The notes under the pieces were generated by a model. It made no database searches. It saw only the letters and a program-made list of their open reading frames with translations, and had not been told where the DNA came from. Made by a program: the position numbers and the translations under genes. Positions 23,957 through 30,455 of a stretch of DNA of 43,043 nucleotides are shown in pieces (within the stretch, counting starts at the first letter, position 1; each line of letters starts with the position of its first letter). Source of the stretch: a virus. The stretch is from the UHGV virus genome UHGV-1376855; one strand, 5' to 3'.

Positions 23957-24080
23957 GTTTTATAATCTCCTTATAATGCTGTTTATGATGTTCTCTGTCC
24001 TTCTCCCTACATTTGTCACATTCTTTCCATTGTTCAGGGTCAAGGAAACATCCGCAAGAATCACAACAGTAACTATACAT
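23931..24080 (-). CDS. small Cys-rich protein (~49 aa)
   Basis: MYSYCCDSCGC...CDKC; below the track cutoff; coordinates approximate. Confidence 0.3.
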   Translation of the reverse strand: MYSYCCDSCGCFLDPEQWKECDKCREKDREHHKQHYKEIIKHESGKQDD

Positions 24081-24267
24081 CCTTTTCGTTCTCTATATTG
24101 TCATATGTTCTTCCCTCTAAAATTGACCTCATTACAACTTTTGATGCATACTGGTCTGAATCCATAAAAATTAATGCTGAATTTACGCGACCTTTAAGCT
24201 CTACAAGATTTTTATACTCGCTAATACTTATTTCAACTGTTCTTTCTTCCATCTTGCAAACCTCCAT
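24073..24267 (-). CDS. hypothetical protein
   Basis: 64-aa track ORF. Confidence 0.3.
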   Translation of the reverse strand: MEVCKMEERTVEISISEYKNLVELKGRVNSALIFMDSDQYASKVVMRSILEGRTYDNIENEKDV

Positions 24268-24439
24268 AATCTCTGATATAATCAGACTGAGTTATTTTTT
24301 GTATCCGGTCGTTTAGCTCTGTCAAGCTGACGACCTTTTTTATTGGCTTACCATATCCGGTGTACCGGCTGGCATTTACCATTTTCCCTGCCCGGTTGGT
24401 TCCGTTCCTCCTGCGACTCACAGCATCACCGCCAGACAT
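24233..24439 (-). CDS. hypothetical basic protein
   Basis: 68-aa track ORF. Confidence 0.25.
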   Translation of the reverse strand: MSGGDAVSRRRNGTNRAGKMVNASRYTGYGKPIKKVVSLTELNDRIQKITQSDYIRDYGGLQDGRKNS

Positions 24440-24544
24440 ATCAGTAACATCCCGCTTAATACCATCACCGCGGCGGTCAGCCCACGGATAATCATACGGT
24501 CCTTCTGCCGCTGTGTCAGATGTGTCCTGCCAACAGGCATGTAT

Positions 24545-24772
24545 TCAAGCTGTTTCAACAAATTTCATCTCCTTCCCGGTCAATTGCAGAAGTATCTGTA
24601 ATTTTTCTATTGTCAGTTTTTCAGGGTTGGCTTTACGCTCTCTAAACGAGCTTGTACAAAAACCCAAATACAAGGCCAGCTCATTATCATCAAAGTTATT
24701 TCTTATTTTGGCTTCTTCTATCAGTAGCCGGATGTTGTCCTTTTGCCATTCTGAAGGTTTCTTAGATTTCAC
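24545..24772 (-). CDS. HTH-like small regulator
   Basis: 75-aa track ORF; HTH-like segment NNFDDNELALYLGFCTSSF. Confidence 0.4.
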   Translation of the reverse strand: MKSKKPSEWQKDNIRLLIEEAKIRNNFDDNELALYLGFCTSSFRERKANPEKLTIEKLQILLQLTGKEMKFVETA

Positions 24773-24790
24773 GACCTCACTTCCTTTCGT

Positions 24791-25003
24791 TTATACATTC
24801 CAGGATAAATTATCTTCTACTATCTCTTTTACATCCACACCAAGAGCATTTGCCATGCGTCCGGCACACACAGGTGTAACTTCCCGCATATTTAAAATAA
24901 CATTCATACGCGCTCGACTCACGCCATACCGTTTGGAAAGATTTGTTATAGTCAAAGAATTTCTAGCCAAAGCAATATCAATTTTATCTCTACTAAGTTT
25001 CAT
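24791..25003 (-). CDS. HTH XRE-like DNA-binding protein
   Basis: TITNLSKRYGVSRARMNVILNMREVTPVCAGRMANALGV. Confidence 0.5.
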   Translation of the reverse strand: MKLSRDKIDIALARNSLTITNLSKRYGVSRARMNVILNMREVTPVCAGRMANALGVDVKEIVEDNLSWNV

Positions 25004-25019
25004 CTCTTACTACCTCCTA

Positions 25020-25118
25020 TCAAATTTTAAAATACTGGTAAAGCGCTATTGCTATAATTATTAGTATCTCTGTAAAAACAGTGCAAACAACTCCTGCTAA
25101 AAATGGATTGATGTACAT
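25020..25118 (-). CDS. 32-aa hydrophobic peptide
   Basis: strong RBS GAAGGAGATAAACG before ATG; single TM-like segment; coordinates approximate. Confidence 0.2.
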   Translation of the reverse strand: MYINPFLAGVVCTVFTEILIIIAIALYQYFKI

Positions 25119-25167
25119 CGTTTATCTCCTTCTCTTTCTCTTAATTCCCCGGCTCTTGCCGTTCTTC

Positions 25168-25434
25168 TTAATCCTGGCTTTCTGTCCCATTCTCTAAGTC
25201 TCCTTGTGTTCCTGTGTTGATGTTGTTCAGTCCGGTGCCATCCTGGGAAACATAGTCATATGTACCCGCGGTATAAAGCCATGCAGCATTGGTGCCTATC
25301 AGCGCCGCCAGTGTTACCAAGAACGCTATAAACCAATGCTTTGCATTCCTCTTGCTCTGCTCGATTACCTCTACAGCAAAATACTGCTCCAGCCCTTCCC
25401 ATGTTGGCTTGTCCTTCTGGTTTTCAATGTTCAT
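25168..25434 (-). CDS. single-TM membrane protein
   Basis: 88 aa; WFIAFLVTLAALIGTNAAWLY. Confidence 0.4.
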   Translation of the reverse strand: MNIENQKDKPTWEGLEQYFAVEVIEQSKRNAKHWFIAFLVTLAALIGTNAAWLYTAGTYDYVSQDGTGLNNINTGTQGDLENGTESQD

Positions 25435-25561
25435 AATTTTTTTCCTCCTGTGCTTGCGTAATACAGGAGAAAATGGTAAAATATTCCTGTATCCGCATTA
25501 GTCGTGTTAATGTGGTTACGGCTCCGGTTGGTGTGTCAGCACCGCCGGGGCATTTTAAAAT

Positions 25562-26278
25562 CTAATCTTCCGTTTCTACGAGTTCTCCATCTTTAAGCAT
25601 GTACCATGTATCTGCTTTGATGTTTACTCCATCAACAACTACTGCTTTCCAGCTGGAAATTTTACATCTATTTTGTTCTTCTTCTGCAATAACCAAAATT
25701 GAACCTAGCCCTCCTTTTGTTTTTACCCTATTTCCTCTTGCAACAGATAATCCATTTTCGCCTGTTGATGATTTTCCCCGACTTGTTGCTGCTCCGTAGT
25801 CCCCGGCTGTTGCTGCTCCGTAGTCCCCGGCTGTTGCTACTCCGTGGTACCCGGCTGTTGCTGCTCCGCAGTCCCCGGCTGTTGCTGCTCCGTAGTCCCC
25901 GGCTGTTGCTGCTCCGTAGTCCCCGGCTGTTGCTGCCTTAGATTCTATACAAGTTGTTTCAATCTTTTCCTTGGTATATTTGATGGCCGCATTTACAATT
26001 CCAGCAATACTCAACTGCGCACCAATGTGCATCTTTGTTGATGCAATTTTACTATCATCATCGTGTCTGCTTATGTCTCCACTCTGCTCTACCTCACAAT
26101 ACACAGATTTTGATGGTGGATAATATTTAAAACAATCAAGTGGGTATTCGCATGCATGCATTCCGCACTCACAAGCAACGGCTTTATCTTCCTCGTAATC
26201 CTTTCCCACTTCATATTGTTTATTTTTGCAGGTCATATCTTTGTTAAAACCTTTATACGATTTTATTATTTCTTCCAT
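25562..26278 (-). CDS. repeat protein with Cys-cluster N-terminus and 7x AATAGDYG octapeptide repeats
   Basis: start at the internal Met (MEEIIKSYK) with RBS AAAGGAGGAAAC; 24-bp DNA tandem repeats inside. Confidence 0.55.
   Translation of the reverse strand: MEEIIKSYKGFNKDMTCKNKQYEVGKDYEEDKAVACECGMHACEYPLDCFKYYPPSKSVYCEVEQSGDISRHDDDSKIASTKMHIGAQLSIAGIVNAAIKYTKEKIETTCIESKAATAGDYGAATAGDYGAATAGDCGAATAGYHGVATAGDYGAATAGDYGAATSRGKSSTGENGLSVARGNRVKTKGGLGSILVIAEEEQNRCKISSWKAVVVDGVNIKADTWYMLKDGELVETED
25786..25935. repeat. 24-bp tandem repeat (~6.5 copies; consensus on plus CCCCGGCTGTTGCTGCTCCGTAGT) that keeps the reading frame
   Basis: direct repeats visible in the sequence. Confidence 0.8.
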
Positions 26279-26282
26279 GTTT

Positions 26283-26369
26283 CCTCCTTTAATCTTGTCA
26301 TTCCTACCCAACTCCTTTATAATTTAAGTACAGGCGTTGCTGCGCCGAGTACATAAGAAAGGAGATAAT
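26283..26369 (+). promoter_or_regulatory. promoter-leader cassette A: TTGTCA-17-TATAAT plus a leader hairpin GGCG-TTGCTG-CGCC and RBS AAGGAG
   Basis: ~80% identical to cassette B at 26845-26932. Confidence 0.5.
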
Positions 26370-26576
26370 ATGTCTGAAAATGCAATGTTGCTTCTTCGTA
26401 AAATGGCCAATGAATTTGATAAAACGAAGCGTAAATCTTTTGATTCTGACTTTTATATTGCTTTCTCTGATAGAATTATTAATGAATTAGAATCATATGG
26501 ATATATCATTTGCCGAAATGATGTTATAGCTTCAATAGAATTAACGTCTGCCGGATACGAAAAGGCAACCAATTAA
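26370..26576 (+). CDS. YjcQ-like small winged-helix protein (plus-strand moron antisense to the early operon)
   Basis: 68 aa from an internal Met; ...INELESYGYIICRNDVIASIELTSAGYEKA resembles the YjcQ family. Confidence 0.45.
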   Translation: MSENAMLLLRKMANEFDKTKRKSFDSDFYIAFSDRIINELESYGYIICRNDVIASIELTSAGYEKATN

Positions 26577-26815
26577 TTCCTAAGAGCCGTCTTGTTGGGC
26601 GGCTCTACTCCAATCAGAGTATTTGTTACCCTATCAACCTTACCATCTTCCAAAAATTCAAAATCATTCAAGTTAAAAGACATGGCAATTTCTGGATTCC
26701 TACCTGCTTCATGAACATAAGAAACGGATGAAATACCTTTCCCTATAGATTTTCCACATAATTCAAAATAGGTATGTTTTCCATCGCTCACCAATCTAAA
26801 CTTTGGTCCGTTCAT
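26573..26815 (-). CDS. hypothetical 80-aa protein
   Basis: RBS AGGAGGTG; its translation-initiation region is duplicated at 27297-27319. Confidence 0.4.
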   Translation of the reverse strand: MNGPKFRLVSDGKHTYFELCGKSIGKGISSVSYVHEAGRNPEIAMSFNLNDFEFLEDGKVDRVTNTLIGVEPPNKTALRN

Positions 26816-26844
26816 CCTCTCTCACCTCCTACTTTAAGAAATAG

Positions 26845-26932
26845 AAATCATTATCTTGTCATTCCTCCCCCTCACCTCTATAATCTAATTACAGGCGTTG
26901 CAGCGCCAAGTATAAAAATACGGGGTAATCTA
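26845..26932 (+). promoter_or_regulatory. promoter-leader cassette B: TTGTCA-17-TATAAT plus a leader hairpin GGCG-TTGCAG-CGCC
   Basis: paralogous to cassette A. Confidence 0.5.
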
Positions 26933-27211
26933 ATGAAAGAAACTACTGTCAAAGCACTCAATCTAGCTGTTGATGATATGCTAAAACGTGAGCAATCGTC
27001 TATCCAGCAATGTATATTGGCTGACTTAAACGATGATATGACACAAGAAGAAATATTTTCAAAAATGATTCTTAATTGTCTTTCTGTGTCTGTGAAATTA
27101 TCAACCCAGTCAATTTTAAGTCTGCTTGAAGAATCGGGAGTTCTTCGCCTTGATGAACGGGAAATTGAAAAGCATCTTTTAAAGCATCTTTCATCAAGGA
27201 TAGAGAAGTAG
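26933..27211 (+). CDS. hypothetical 93-aa protein (paralogous position to the YjcQ-like gene)
   Basis: follows cassette B; overlaps the antisense ORF 27072..27299. Confidence 0.35.
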   Translation: MKETTVKALNLAVDDMLKREQSSIQQCILADLNDDMTQEEIFSKMILNCLSVSVKLSTQSILSLLEESGVLRLDEREIEKHLLKHLSSRIEK

Positions 27212-27299
27212 AATCCTGTCGCTGGCTTTTGTGTTCAAGGTCAGCGACTCTTTTCTCCATCTGCTGCCATCGCTTTTTTGATATGTACGTTTCCATCAC
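27072..27299 (-). CDS. hypothetical 75-aa protein directly downstream of cro
   Basis: AGGAGGTG right next to the ATG (spacing too short to be optimal); overlaps the plus ORF, so one of the two may be spurious. Confidence 0.3.
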   Translation of the reverse strand: MMETYISKKRWQQMEKRVADLEHKSQRQDSTSLSLMKDALKDAFQFPVHQGEELPILQADLKLTGLIISQTQKDN

Positions 27300-27307
27300 C
27301 TCCTACT

Positions 27308-27493
27308 CTAAGAAATAAGCTTATCAACTTTGACTTTTAAAACATCCGCGACCGCTTTGAGGCTTTTTACAGTGGGACTTGAATCATTCCATTTGCTAAT
27401 AGCACCGTTTTTAAGTCCAGCAGTTGTTTCTACTTGTCGAACACTAATACCTTTTTCTTCACATATTGCTTTAATCCTATCGTAAATCAGCAA
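27308..27493 (-). CDS. Cro-like HTH regulator
   Basis: 61 aa; TTG start with RBS AAAGGAGG; HTH VRQVETTAGLKNGAISKW; divergent from the repressor. Confidence 0.65.
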   Translation of the reverse strand: MLIYDRIKAICEEKGISVRQVETTAGLKNGAISKWNDSSPTVKSLKAVADVLKVKVDKLIS

Positions 27494-27535
27494 CTTATAT
27501 CCTCCTTTCTTTTAGAAAAAATTCTACCTTATATA

Positions 27536-27564
27536 TTGACATGATGTAGATTTTATTCTATAAT
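27536..27564 (+). promoter_or_regulatory. sigma-70 promoter TTGACA-17-TATAAT, rightward (repressor/lysogeny transcript)
   Basis: consensus hexamers; overlaps operator O2. Confidence 0.5.
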
Positions 27565-27578
27565 CAAGTTACCAGCAA
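27550..27578 (-). promoter_or_regulatory. sigma-70 promoter TTGCTG-17-TAAAAT, leftward (cro/early-left transcript)
   Basis: -10 lies inside operator O2 and overlaps the divergent plus-strand promoter. Confidence 0.45.
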
Positions 27579-27644
27579 AATCATAGACAACATCAAAATC
27601 TGTATTTTACATTTGGTAGAATTTTTTCTACTCCATATATCTGT

Positions 27645-27673
27645 ATTATACAGACTATATTCTATGTTGTCAA
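27645..27673 (-). promoter_or_regulatory. second leftward consensus promoter TTGACA-17-TATAAT flanked by operators O3 and O4
   Basis: exact consensus hexamers at 17-nt spacing. Confidence 0.45.
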
Positions 27674-27715
27674 TAGTTTTTGTAGACTTTTTTCTACTTT
27701 TATCAGGAGGCCACC

Positions 27716-28096
27716 ATGACAACATATGATATAATTTCTGACCTTTGCAAACAACGCGGAATTGCGATTACGGCCTTAGAAAAGGAATTGGGATTTGGAA
27801 GGGGGTATATTGGTAAATTTAAGACCAGAGGCACAAGCCCGACAATAAAAAAACTCCAACAAATAGCTGACTATTTTGGAGTGTCGGTCAATGATTTAAT
27901 GCCCGGAAACGAGAAAGCAGAAGCTGACAGATACTATATCAATCCAGAAACTGCGGCCATAGCACAAGACATTTTCGAGAATAAAGAACTGCGTCTGCTA
28001 TTCGATGCTGCCAGGGATGCAACGGCAGATGATTTGAAAACTACACATGATATGCTTTTAGCTTTGAAAAGAAAGGAACGAGGCAATGTCGATTGA
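27716..28096 (+). CDS. cI-like repressor (HTH_XRE, no peptidase domain)
   Basis: RBS AGGAGG; N-terminal HTH ISDLCKQRGIAITALEKELGFGRGYIGKF; divergent from cro. Confidence 0.7.
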   Translation: MTTYDIISDLCKQRGIAITALEKELGFGRGYIGKFKTRGTSPTIKKLQQIADYFGVSVNDLMPGNEKAEADRYYINPETAAIAQDIFENKELRLLFDAARDATADDLKTTHDMLLALKRKERGNVD

Positions 28097-28316
28097 CTAC
28101 AACGTCCAATTGATTAGCTTTCCATCTGGAAAAGTACATGAAGCCGTAACGCCTAATGAGGATGGAACCGTTACTATATTTTTAGATAAAAATGCAACCA
28201 GAGAATCTCAAAGACAGAGGTTCTGGCATGTTATGAGGCACTTAGAAGGAAATGATTTTGAAAAAGATGATGTACAGAACATTGAATATGATGCACATTA
28301 TGGAGGATGCTCATGA
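28086..28316 (+). CDS. small protein translationally coupled to the repressor
   Basis: 76-aa ORF overlapping the repressor stop; unknown function. Confidence 0.45.
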   Translation: MSIDYNVQLISFPSGKVHEAVTPNEDGTVTIFLDKNATRESQRQRFWHVMRHLEGNDFEKDDVQNIEYDAHYGGCS

Positions 28317-29215
28317 GTATTAAAGGAACGACTAAGGAATTATATATCGGTAAAACAGGAGTTAATTTGATTACATTTATGGGGAATAAAGTATCCCTTG
28401 CATATGAACAAATGAAAAGAATTGATTATTGTTATGCGACCAGCAAAAAAGGGTATATGAATTTTGTAACGCAAGCAAACATTATAGAAAATTTTAATTT
28501 TTCTAATAATGCAAATGAATTGATTCAAAAAACTGTTGACTTTATTCATGAATATGCTCCTAATTTAGAAATAATAGAATATCATTTAGACGATGAAAAA
28601 AAGAACCGTTCAATAAAAATACAGGCTATTTTTGGATATAAAGAATTGGGATTGAAAACAGGATACATAATTATTACTCAAGAACCTTCTGGAAAAATAT
28701 TTTTAAATAAAGATAAGTCTACATTCTACGATTTAATTGAATATGAATGGGATGGACCAGAGTTTTCAACTTTAACAACTTCTTCAGGAACTACTACAGA
28801 AAAGAGCAAGACAAAATCAAAGGAAAAAACATCTAACATTGGATTAGGAGCAGTTGTAGGTAACATAATGCTTGGTGGAATAAATGGAAAAAATAAGGGA
28901 TTATCAAAAACTCTAGGGAATGTAGTTTCAAATTCTACAAAACTATCATCTAATATTGAAAAGTCTACCAATGCTACTATTACTTTCAGAAATCAAGATA
29001 GCAAAAAAATTTTCAAATTGTCATTCAAATGCACTAGAGAAATTGATTCAAAAATACGATGTTTTGATTTCTCTAAAATTCCTGATAAAGCGATAATAAT
29101 TAATGATGTGAAGCAAAATTTAGAAGGGATTAAGGCCTTAAAAGAATTACTTGACATTGGAGCATTAACACAAGAAGAGTTTGATGAAAAAAAGAAACAG
29201 ATTTTAAATATGTAA
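28313..29215 (+). CDS. SHOCT-domain protein with N-terminal bPH-like region and Gly-zipper segment (AT-rich cargo gene)
   Basis: C-terminus ALKELLDIGALTQEEFDEKKKQIL is a SHOCT motif; markedly lower GC than its neighbours; sits between repressor and integrase. Confidence 0.55.
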   Translation: MSIKGTTKELYIGKTGVNLITFMGNKVSLAYEQMKRIDYCYATSKKGYMNFVTQANIIENFNFSNNANELIQKTVDFIHEYAPNLEIIEYHLDDEKKNRSIKIQAIFGYKELGLKTGYIIITQEPSGKIFLNKDKSTFYDLIEYEWDGPEFSTLTTSSGTTTEKSKTKSKEKTSNIGLGAVVGNIMLGGINGKNKGLSKTLGNVVSNSTKLSSNIEKSTNATITFRNQDSKKIFKLSFKCTREIDSKIRCFDFSKIPDKAIIINDVKQNLEGIKALKELLDIGALTQEEFDEKKKQILNM

Positions 29216-29220
29216 AACAA

Positions 29221-29250
29221 AACCGGCCCCTGCGCCAACAGGAACCGGCC
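29221..29250 (-). terminator. GC-rich hairpin (GGCCGGTTCCTG-N6-CAGGGGCCGG) followed by TTTTGTTTT on the minus strand
   Basis: the U-run is on the minus strand only. Confidence 0.35.
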
Positions 29251-29381
29251 TACATACCCGAAGATATGTACTATAATTCGCACCTATATTGTACCATCTT
29301 CGGGGCGGCTTTGCAAGATATTTGCGGAGCTGTATTTTTTATACCTATTTTTAGGGAAATCAATTGAAGGAGGAAAGAGAA

Positions 29382-30455
29382 ATGACAAAGAAAGCCCCGA
29401 AAAAGAAAAAAGGAGAACTGCCGTCTGGAAATGTCCGAGTGCAAGTGTATCTGTATACAGATGATAAAGGCAAGCGGCATTACAAAAGCTTTGTTGCTCC
29501 ATCACGCAAGGAAGCAAAGGAAATGGCTACTCGATGGAAATTAGATATGAAAGATAAGCCCATAGAGCAATACAATGAACCGGATGAGGACGAGGACGAA
29601 GATATAACAGTGAACCAAGCTATTGAACGTTATTTAAACGTCAAGAAAGGCGTTTTAAGCCCTTCCACGCTTAGAGGGTACACAGGTATGCAAAGACAGT
29701 ATTTCGGCGGAGCATTTGGGCGTAAACGGCTCTCAGAACTAACGAATCCATCTGTACAGATATGGATAAGTGATTTGGCCTCTAAACAACTCTCTCCAAA
29801 GACAGTCCGAAATGCCTATGGCCTGTTATCTGCATCCCTGGAGATGTTTGCACCGGATTTAACTCTAAAAGTTAAACTGCCTCAGAAAAAACGTCCTGAA
29901 TTATATTGCCCCAATGACAATGATATTAAAAAGCTGCTGGAGGCAATCAAAGGTACTGATTTAGAAATAGCTGTTTTACTAGCAGCCTTTGGACCACTCA
30001 GACGCGGAGAGATAAGCGCCCTTACTGATAAAAATGTAGAGGGTCGTATTATCCATGTAAGAGACAATATGGTCAAGGGGCCAGACAATCAATGGTACAT
30101 CAAACAGCCTAAAACGGATGATAGTACAAGGGATGTAGAAATGCCCGCATTTGTAATTGACCGGATATCTGAAAAAAAAGGAAAGTTGCTTGATATGAAC
30201 CCGGATTACATCACACACCGATTCGGACGAGTACTCAAAAAGATTGATATACCCCATTTCCGCTTTCACGACCTCCGGCATTATGCTGCATCCATTATGC
30301 ACGCCATAGGCATACCGGACCAATATATTTTGCAGCGGGGAGGATGGGCCAGCGACAATATCATGAAAGCAGTATACAGAAATGTAATTGACTTGGAAAG
30401 CGTCCGGCAGAATAAAAAAATTAATAAGCACTTTGAAAAATTAAACAGCATGTAA
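29382..30455 (+). CDS. int: tyrosine integrase (site-specific recombinase)
   Basis: RBS GAAGGAGG; C-terminal catalytic region HDLRHYAASI...GGW with conserved R/H/Y; arm sites and attP downstream. Confidence 0.9.
   Translation: MTKKAPKKKKGELPSGNVRVQVYLYTDDKGKRHYKSFVAPSRKEAKEMATRWKLDMKDKPIEQYNEPDEDEDEDITVNQAIERYLNVKKGVLSPSTLRGYTGMQRQYFGGAFGRKRLSELTNPSVQIWISDLASKQLSPKTVRNAYGLLSASLEMFAPDLTLKVKLPQKKRPELYCPNDNDIKKLLEAIKGTDLEIAVLLAAFGPLRRGEISALTDKNVEGRIIHVRDNMVKGPDNQWYIKQPKTDDSTRDVEMPAFVIDRISEKKGKLLDMNPDYITHRFGRVLKKIDIPHFRFHDLRHYAASIMHAIGIPDQYILQRGGWASDNIMKAVYRNVIDLESVRQNKKINKHFEKLNSM

Follow-up and report, generated by a model that had tools for sequence, protein, structure and literature searches.

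The 43,043-nucleotide (nt) virus genome UHGV-1376855, referred to in its entirety as the window, is that of a temperate Firmicutes phage. Embedded antisense in its leftward early operon are two copies of a short plus-strand element, termed the cassette in the following, which consists of a predicted promoter, a 23-nt hairpin core and a Shine-Dalgarno (SD) sequence; each copy precedes one small gene, its cargo. This analysis concerns the two cassettes, the family to which they belong and the genes behind them. Both cassette units, each with a convergent minus-strand open reading frame (ORF), comprise the following features:

26295..26323, plus strand: promoter of cassette 1, TTGTCA-17-TATAAT, 11/12 matches to the consensus
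26329..26351, plus strand: 23-nt hairpin core of cassette 1, TACAGGCGTTGCTGCGCCGAGTA, 5 nt past the -10 box and at the predicted 5' end of the transcript
26355..26364, plus strand: extended SD sequence of cassette 1, AAGAAAGGAG, with the ATG at 26370 lying 5 nt downstream
26370..26576, plus strand: cargo gene 1, 68 amino acids (aa), a narrow ORFan for which a homology search yields near-identical homologues only
26573..26815, minus strand: early gene 1, 80 aa, its stop codon overlapping that of cargo gene 1 in TTAA
26583..26606, plus strand: hairpin 3' of cargo gene 1, -20 kcal/mol, z -4.1, no U tail
26822..26843: first copy of a 22-nt repeat (D4), read on the minus strand as TATTTCTTAAAGTAGGAGGTGA; it combines what is left of the cro 3' end with the SD sequence for the minus-strand gene 26573..26815
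26856..26884, plus strand: promoter of cassette 2, TTGTCA-17-TATAAT, 11/12 matches
26890..26912, plus strand: hairpin core of cassette 2, TACAGGCGTTGCAGCGCCAAGTA, located by core search and fold
26933..27211, plus strand: cargo gene 2, 92 aa, member of a real protein family, modelled with four helices
27072..27299, minus strand: ORF 2, 75 aa, with ~27 conserved N-terminal residues (WISKKKWxALEKRVADLE)
27218..27258, plus strand: terminator-like hairpin (27218-27248) with T-rich tail behind cargo gene 2, of the intrinsic type
27296..27317: second copy of the 22-nt repeat, comprising the last codons and the stop of cro and the SD sequence of the next gene

The two cassettes form a direct repeat of 65 nt (26292-26356 and 26853-26917) with 83% identity, and the TTGTCA-17-TATAAT promoter as well as the hairpin are present in both copies. 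The duplicated promoter-leader elements reported in a preliminary description of this DNA are thus real, but the extents of ~85 bp given there were slightly generous: the outer nucleotides, 26283-26291 and 26845-26852, fail to align. When up to three mismatches are permitted, the core has two matches in the window, compared to 0.00 expected from shuffled sequence. Copy 1 is predicted to fold at -13 kcal/mol into an inner stem of five pairs, GGCGU/GCGCC, and an outer stem of three, UAC/GUA.

Both copies belong to a widespread family. The core, written as TACAGG(C/T)GTTGCNGC(G/A)CC(G/A)AGTA, was located in no fewer than 150 loci from phages, prophages and metagenomes, nearly all of them from Lachnospiraceae. 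Among phage records, the sole blastn match is the cassette core of Anaerostipes phage AC844P1, which precedes an unrelated 69-aa gene, likewise embedded antisense, and whose stem displays a compensatory change from GGCG/CGCC to GGTG/CACC. A strict pattern scan of IMG/VR returned 30 loci, looser patterns added further viral loci, and a pattern scan of species-representative genomes gave 45 stretches, again almost all from Lachnospiraceae; Blautia, Enterocloster, Acetatifactor, Lachnospira, Roseburia and C. symbiosum carry the element. In the metagenome collection, several of the matches listed lie on contigs labelled as human-gut metagenome. Searching Rfam 15 with E-values up to 10 produced chance-level hits and no relevant match for the segments 24000-30000 and 26270-26400. 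A full-text literature search for the core sequence retrieved no paper, and no description of the element turned up in literature searches on Lachnospiraceae prophage morons and on the Anaerostipes phage; the RNA motif appears to be undescribed so far.

The hallmark of the family is its fixed geometry, as counted in 131 distinct instances. The -35 box almost invariably begins with TTG; the spacer between the -35 and -10 boxes measures 17 nt in 115 instances, and the -10 box is TATAAT or TATACT in 115 as well. The gap between the -10 box and the core is even more constant (5 nt in 127/131), and an SD sequence, AGAAAGGAG, is found 6-7 nt 3' of the core in 111; where the start codon was scored, it is ATG in 112 of 125 instances. 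With its core beginning 5 nt past the -10 box, the hairpin would form the extreme 5' end of the transcript: transcription usually starts ~7 nt past the -10 box, so that a few nucleotides at most would separate the hairpin from the predicted mRNA 5' end.

For an unbiased test of the structure, the stem positions were left free in the search pattern and the retrieved cores were sorted by the presence of a preceding -10 box. The 33 distinct cores with a -10 box have almost all complementary stems: pair 1 is GC in 26 and AT in 4 cores, pair 3 is CG in 19 and TA in 11, and pair 4, in cores of the same type, is GC in 22, AT in 5, CG in 3 and TA in 2. Among the 23 cores lacking a -10 box, 21 are unpaired chance matches, the remaining two being family cores with a paired stem. 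In an alignment of 109 sequences, 93.1% of the cells are paired and the covariation score amounts to 0.166 versus 0.091 in shuffles, none of 500 shuffles reaching the observed value; the pairing is lost when the 3' partners are slid along the alignment. A fourth outer base pair (columns 16-40) was rejected, 56 of the 109 sequences being unpaired at this position. In the reciprocal scan, run with a fixed stem and with free loop and flank positions, the loop TTGC and the flanks TACA..RAGTA turned out to be nearly invariant. Since the stem covaries and loop and flanks are nearly fixed, the hairpin is under selection for its fold and, in addition, for specific unpaired bases. The core of the window differs from that of another family locus, L051, at only 2 of 23 positions; the respective cargo 2 proteins are apparently distant, the L051 cargo resembling a family member that is ~35% identical to the window protein. 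The segment ACAGG(C/U)GUUGCA (26330-26341) seems to bear a likeness to the conserved helix 34 of 16S rRNA (E. coli ~1046, ACAGGUGCUGCA); it is presumably coincidental and was not used.

To the right of the cassettes lies the immunity region:

27308..27493, minus strand: cro-like helix-turn-helix (HTH) gene, heading the leftward early operon
27512..27697, both strands: immunity switch with face-to-face consensus promoters and four GTAGAAWWWWTTCTAC operators
27536-27564, plus strand: consensus promoter of the switch, between cI and cro
27673-27645, minus strand: consensus promoter driving the leftward, cro-led early operon
27716..28096, plus strand: cI-like HTH repressor gene, in the same orientation as the cassettes
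29364..30455, plus strand: integrase of the ordinary phage tyrosine type, ~2 kb from the cassettes

The cassettes are oriented like cI and the integrase, i.e. against the operon led by cro (27308..27493) and transcribed from 27673-27645, so that the small plus-strand genes do oppose early transcription as initially proposed. The four operator-like palindromes GTAGAAWWWWTTCTAC overlap both of the face-to-face promoters between cI and cro and occur nowhere else in the window, including both cassettes; the idea that the cassettes are themselves cI operators was rejected, as the operators are confined to 27512-27697. A similar context is found across the family: the nearest gene upstream of the cassette lies on the opposite strand in 101 of 150 loci, as does the gene that follows the cargo (102 of 150), approximately two-thirds of the cassettes have opposite-strand genes on both sides, and XRE-type cI/cro genes are located within 6 kb in 125 of 152 loci.

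None of the four small ORFs of the window has a match in Pfam, PHROG or NCBIfam. Cargo 1 had been described as YjcQ-like, a designation that neither these searches nor a comparison to the DUF2513 cargo of another locus, to which it shows no similarity, could substantiate; its single-sequence AlphaFold2 model consists of three helices and is of low confidence (predicted local distance difference test, pLDDT, 65). Cargo 2, judging by its conservation, is a genuine protein: its 33 representatives share 29-51% identity, are nearly all co-linear and measure 87-99 aa, with a conservation pattern that extends to the C-terminal half. Relatives with ~30% identity in L051, L081 and L093 likewise reside behind a cassette. 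The AlphaFold2 model of cargo 2 is confident (pLDDT 93.5) and comprises four helices; a Foldseek search of this model against the PDB gave no match below E = 1.

The convergent pairing of the cargo genes with the minus-strand ORFs 26573..26815 (80 aa) and 27072..27299 (75 aa) was borne out, and both partners belong to protein families with variable ends. In the 80-aa family (15 loci), ~65 residues are conserved and followed by one of three alternative C-terminal tails, which change with the cargo. In the family of the 75-aa ORF, the tails differ completely and the start context varies even among close relatives; the 140-nt overlap with cargo gene 2 falls into the variable tail. Because conservation in this family is restricted to the ~27 N-terminal residues, the overlapping part is probably read-through into an inserted module. 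The suggestion that one of the two overlapping ORFs is merely an antisense RNA does not agree with these data: cargo 2 represents a real family, and the N-terminal residues of its minus-strand counterpart are conserved. Read on the minus strand, the terminator segment 27218-27258 codes for EKRVADLEHKSQRQ, a motif conserved at the N-terminus of a family of small early proteins; in L090, too, terminator and N-terminal motif share their bases.

The cargo of the family is highly diverse. Clustering by sequence sorted the 68 ORFs located behind distinct cassettes into 48 groups; the proteins measure 35-234 aa and in most cases 50-100 aa. Most are ORFans; the few exceptions include zinc ribbons and matches to DUF2513, KTSC, DUF6173 or YjzC. 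A recognisable defence domain is present in one of 47 cargo representatives, a TIR-type effector: the L057 cargo (JAETQH010000097.1; 234 aa, on the minus strand of its locus, starting shortly after the core) matches a TIR effector of PADLOC with E = 7.5e-17 and is a candidate for a single-gene prophage defence driven by the cassette. The same protein weakly matches the Pfam nucleoside 2-deoxyribosyltransferase family. One cargo family, beginning with MHRIYANLL or MNRVYANLL, is found behind cassettes with differing flanks. The regions 3' of the cargo genes fold more stably than random windows of the same loci (mean -14.1 versus -10.3 kcal/mol, p = 2e-11), and a T tail follows the cargo in 32 of 127 cases. 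In 11 of 68 cassette contexts, including 26573-26576 of the window and 3270-3273 of L001, the stop codons of the cargo and of the convergent early gene overlap, with an offset of 4 nt, in the palindrome TTAA.

Comparison to related phages reveals how these units are exchanged. Homology of the window to L003, L012, L023, L020, L022, L006, L011 and L013 ends at 26361-26371, that is, at the SD sequence and start codon of cassette 1. It resumes at 26612-26624 in L020, L022, L006, L011 and L013, and does not in L003, L012 and L023. From these breakpoints, what is swapped is the cargo ORF together with the hairpin behind it and the final codons of the convergent gene, in keeping with the three alternative tails of the 80-aa family. 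The hairpin at 26583-26606 lies inside the variable tail of the convergent gene and is part of the swapped segment, and the slot of cargo 1 (26364 to about 26612-26624) is occupied by other cargos in L003, L020 and L022. Another group (L143, L169, L205) joins the window at 26318, in the -10 box. The preliminary description had interpreted the 22-nt repeat as a duplicated translation-initiation region. The repeat as such was confirmed (26822-26843 and 27296-27317, 95% identical); it is, however, the end of cro together with the following SD sequence and marks an indel junction. In L004 and L006, which lack 26844-27301, a single copy leads directly into cro and unit 2 is missing, so that unit 2 (26844-27317, 474 bp) represents an indel flanked by the 22-nt direct repeat. 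The repeat is present in 1-3 copies per locus in 22 loci. The two units vary independently: L004 carries unit 1 only, L008 and L021 unit 2 only. As the homology breakpoints fall within the cassette and the 22-nt repeat, these short sequences are the joints at which accessory modules are exchanged. 'Empty' cassettes in L006, L011 and L013 (e.g. L006 9934-9990) are deletion derivatives of the L020 cargo, in which the SD region is fused to the C-terminal AAGAAAAAGAG codons of the cargo, which suggests that the deletion arose via short homology.

Taken as a whole, the reading considered most probable, and held with moderate confidence, is that the repeats are conserved, portable expression cassettes for morons in temperate Lachnospiraceae phages, with the hairpin serving as a 5' stabiliser and leader. 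The cassette would operate in the following manner: A sigma-A-type promoter (TTGnnn, 17 nt, TATAAT or TATACT) is followed by the hairpin at the extreme 5' end of the transcript, a near-perfect SD sequence and the start codon. Each cassette heads one small accessory gene with its own 3' hairpin or terminator, i.e. a moron, which is usually located antisense in the cro-led early operon and faces in the direction of cI and the integrase. Because the cassettes contain no cI/Cro operator, their promoters are presumably constitutive and thus active in the lysogen, and the genes behind them are probably expressed there. The plus-strand hairpin is probably a protective, translation-competent leader at the 5' terminus; as in B. 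subtilis aprE, it may block 5'-end-dependent decay and thereby allow short monocistronic mRNAs to be expressed stably and at a high level in the face of convergent early transcription. Upon induction, leftward early transcription may interfere with the cassette promoters. Short conserved sequences, namely the cassette and the 22-nt repeat, are the places where accessory modules are swapped, gained or lost. The moron-like logic proposed at the outset is reasonable on these grounds: both genes have their own near-consensus promoter and their own 3' hairpin, and neither cassette carries a cI/Cro operator.

Several observations weigh against this interpretation. The sample was collected by patterns, which inflates the apparent conservation at the positions fixed in each pattern. 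The fifth stem pair, U-G, is weakly supported (TG 24, TC 7), and counting G-U against A-C over the four inner pairs, with 5 and 3 distinct cores respectively, does not tell the strands apart. The transcript start is a prediction from promoter geometry. In the window, the SD sequence of cassette 2 is weaker (GGGGT) and its hairpin alone is unexceptional in energy (z -0.8). Cargo 1 is truncated in L009, L024 and L018, so at least some of the cargo is dispensable. Finally, the conserved loop UUGC, the bulged A and the RAGUA flank are not needed by a plain stabiliser and hint at a specific binding partner.

This unexplained conservation of loop and flanks is what keeps alive a different model, which is possible but rather unlikely: the hairpin may be the site of a trans-acting regulator, either a protein that binds the leader RNA or one that binds DNA and has its operator at +1 to +23, the cassette genes then being switched jointly as a regulon instead of being constitutive. 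That the TTGC loop, the unpaired A and the TACA/RAGTA flanks barely vary next to covarying pairs 1, 3 and 4 is the usual sign of recognition through loop and flanks, and the fixed position over the transcription start would suit a roadblock operator. The search for a partner gene, for which 7095 neighbouring ORFs from 152 loci were clustered, nevertheless revealed no candidate that co-occurs with the element; the sole near-universal group are the XRE-type cI/cro proteins (125/152 loci), which are heterogeneous. In the window, moreover, the cI/Cro operators differ in sequence from the core and are absent from the cassettes, and the asymmetric motif, with A and GA bulges, fits the operator of a dimeric HTH protein poorly. 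A conserved host factor could be the binder instead.

A more far-reaching version is put forward only tentatively and is regarded as doubtful: the 23-nt hairpin may be recognised by a dedicated factor, either a regulator that binds RNA or a recombination function for which folded single strands are the substrate, which would turn the cassettes into a coordinated, actively mobilised platform for gene capture and expression. If this were true, Firmicutes phages would possess an integron- or PeSL-like system (see below) defined by a structured leader, and the hairpin would provide a ready tag for defence and counter-defence genes expressed in lysogens of gut bacteria.

It is improbable that antisense transcription is the main product of the cassettes, damping leaky lytic expression and stabilising lysogeny, with the ORFs being secondary. 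About two-thirds of the cassettes are indeed antisense to both neighbours, the convergent stop codons often overlap (by TTAA in 11 cases) and the promoters are near consensus. Yet the remaining third is co-oriented with a neighbour, strong SD sequences at 6-7 nt (111/131) and ATG starts (112/125) point to translation, cargo 2 is a conserved protein family, and the hairpins or terminators after the cargo would limit antisense read-through.

Very improbable is a function of the element in early transcripts of the minus strand, where it might, for instance, be processed by RNase III or stabilise the RNA between early cistrons. The element resides in intergenic spacers just upstream of minus-strand genes, its reverse complement folds at -10.2 kcal/mol (z -2.8), and the wobble statistics given above are compatible with this strand. 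The plus-strand fold, at -13 kcal/mol, is more stable, however, and one-third of the copies lie outside a minus-strand operon context; distances to the plus-strand -10 box and SD sequence are fixed, whereas those to minus-strand gene starts vary from about 17 to more than 100 nt. Because of the fixed plus-strand spacing and the more stable plus-strand fold, the function of the hairpin is assigned to the plus-strand transcription unit.

The tandem duplication of a two-gene, possibly interfering (toxin-antitoxin-like) unit, which was suggested originally by two tandem repeat-flanked units with one ORF on each strand, can practically be dismissed: the ORFs of one unit are unrelated to those of the other, relatives carry either unit on its own (L004; L008, L021), the cassette recurs in no fewer than 150 loci and in combination with 48 or more different cargos, the cargo proteins are soluble rather than small and hydrophobic like toxins, and the minus-strand partners stem from ordinary early-gene families with variable tails. 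Type I toxin-antitoxin systems were rejected, as both cargos are soluble helical proteins and their partners belong to protein-coding families; type III systems were considered and rejected as well.

The cassette family is kin to morons and to mobile regulatory cassettes such as the promoter early stem-loops (PeSLs), and it is more general than two local repeats. In the concept of Juhala and Hendrix, a moron is one additional gene that brings along a promoter and a terminator, is inserted between the genes of an operon, occurs in only part of the relatives and is presumably expressed from the prophage. Both window genes are similarly preceded by a predicted TTGTCA-17-TATAAT promoter (11/12), the geometry of which is kept in the 131 instances, and followed by a hairpin or terminator (27218-27248 with a T tail, 26583-26606 without a U tail); they are also present or absent among relatives, unit 2 being absent in L004 and L006 and unit 1 in L008 and L021. 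Classical morons of lambdoid and other temperate phages each have their own, unrelated promoter, whereas dozens of unrelated cargos are placed here under one conserved promoter-leader with a structured 5' end.

In the PeSLs of T4-type phages, a terminator stem-loop precedes an early promoter, small ORFans flank the element, and homologous recombination between its copies leads to insertion, deletion and swapping of genes (Arbiol, Comeau & Krisch 2010, PMC2839356; Comeau et al. 2014, PMC4122927). The family described here likewise combines a strong sigma-70-type promoter, a stem-loop and an SD sequence in a short conserved cassette that is associated with small ORFans in variable regions, and the breakpoints of indels and replacements at 26318, at 26361-26371 and within the 22-nt repeat recall the PeSL mode of exchange. 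The differences are equally clear: the hairpin follows the -10 box at a distance of 5 nt, lacks a U tract and would be placed at the mRNA 5' end, which does not correspond to the PeSL arrangement; the phages are temperate Firmicutes phages as opposed to lytic T4-like ones; the genes are antisense to the surrounding operon; and the core is a single sequence family across genera, with covariation in the stem.

The expected action of the hairpin resembles that of Firmicutes mRNA stabilisers. An extreme 5' hairpin followed by a very strong SD sequence is known to block 5'-end-dependent decay by RNase J1, and ermC and hbs are, besides aprE, paradigms of such combinations of a 5' stem-loop and a ribosome-binding site (RBS). 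For the B. subtilis aprE leader, stabilisation of the mRNA by a 5' stem-loop and a strong RBS is, as the work is cited elsewhere, the reported result (Hambraeus et al. 2002, reference 109 in PMC3997798). With respect to the predicted start site, the 5-nt gap in 127/131 and the SD sequence 6-7 nt after the core in 111/131 instances would produce the same layout. Leaders of the aprE type are gene-specific and not conserved between genes; in the cassettes, by contrast, loop and flanks are conserved across at least 48 cargos and many genera.

Integron cassettes, which consist of a promoterless ORF followed by attC and form an array next to intI, were rejected as a model: each ORF has its own promoter here, the 23-nt hairpin is located 5' of the ORF, and the integrase is an ordinary phage tyrosine integrase. 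A further parallel are the hotspots of P2 and P4, fixed positions in temperate phages at which alternative accessory genes, including defence genes, lie between conserved flanks (2022, PMC9122126). Many interchangeable accessory genes at a fixed site are common to both; the P2/P4 hotspots differ in that they hold multi-gene defence systems between conserved core genes and are not defined by a common promoter-leader RNA motif.

Lachnospiraceae are a dominant family of gut bacteria and genetically hard to study. If the moron-cassette reading is right, the 23-nt motif marks the starts of accessory genes in their temperate phages and could serve to harvest hundreds of candidate genes for exclusion, defence, counter-defence and modulation of the host, comparable to the use made of aca genes or the P2/P4 hotspots; at least 48 cargo families, nearly all ORFans, have been found already. 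The cassette would also supply a compact natural part, comprising promoter, leader and RBS, for expression in Lachnospiraceae, and it would constitute a second independent case, after the T4 PeSLs, of regulatory cassettes acting as joints of modular phage evolution.

Two further observations concern other sequences. As a by-product of the scan with fixed stem, several IMG/VR contigs of 5-6 kb among L145-L205 (e.g. L161, L163, L173), which are microvirus-sized, were found to carry an unrelated conserved hairpin, GCA-AGGCG-CTAAA-GCGCC-ATTCAA, before an SD sequence. In the window itself, the DUF7666 gene to the left of cassette 1 (25562..26278, minus strand) contains a 24-nt tandem repeat in seven copies (25760-25951), which encodes octapeptide repeats of the sequence GAATAGDY; its copy number varies strongly between phages of this kinship, L016 and L024 having many more registers.

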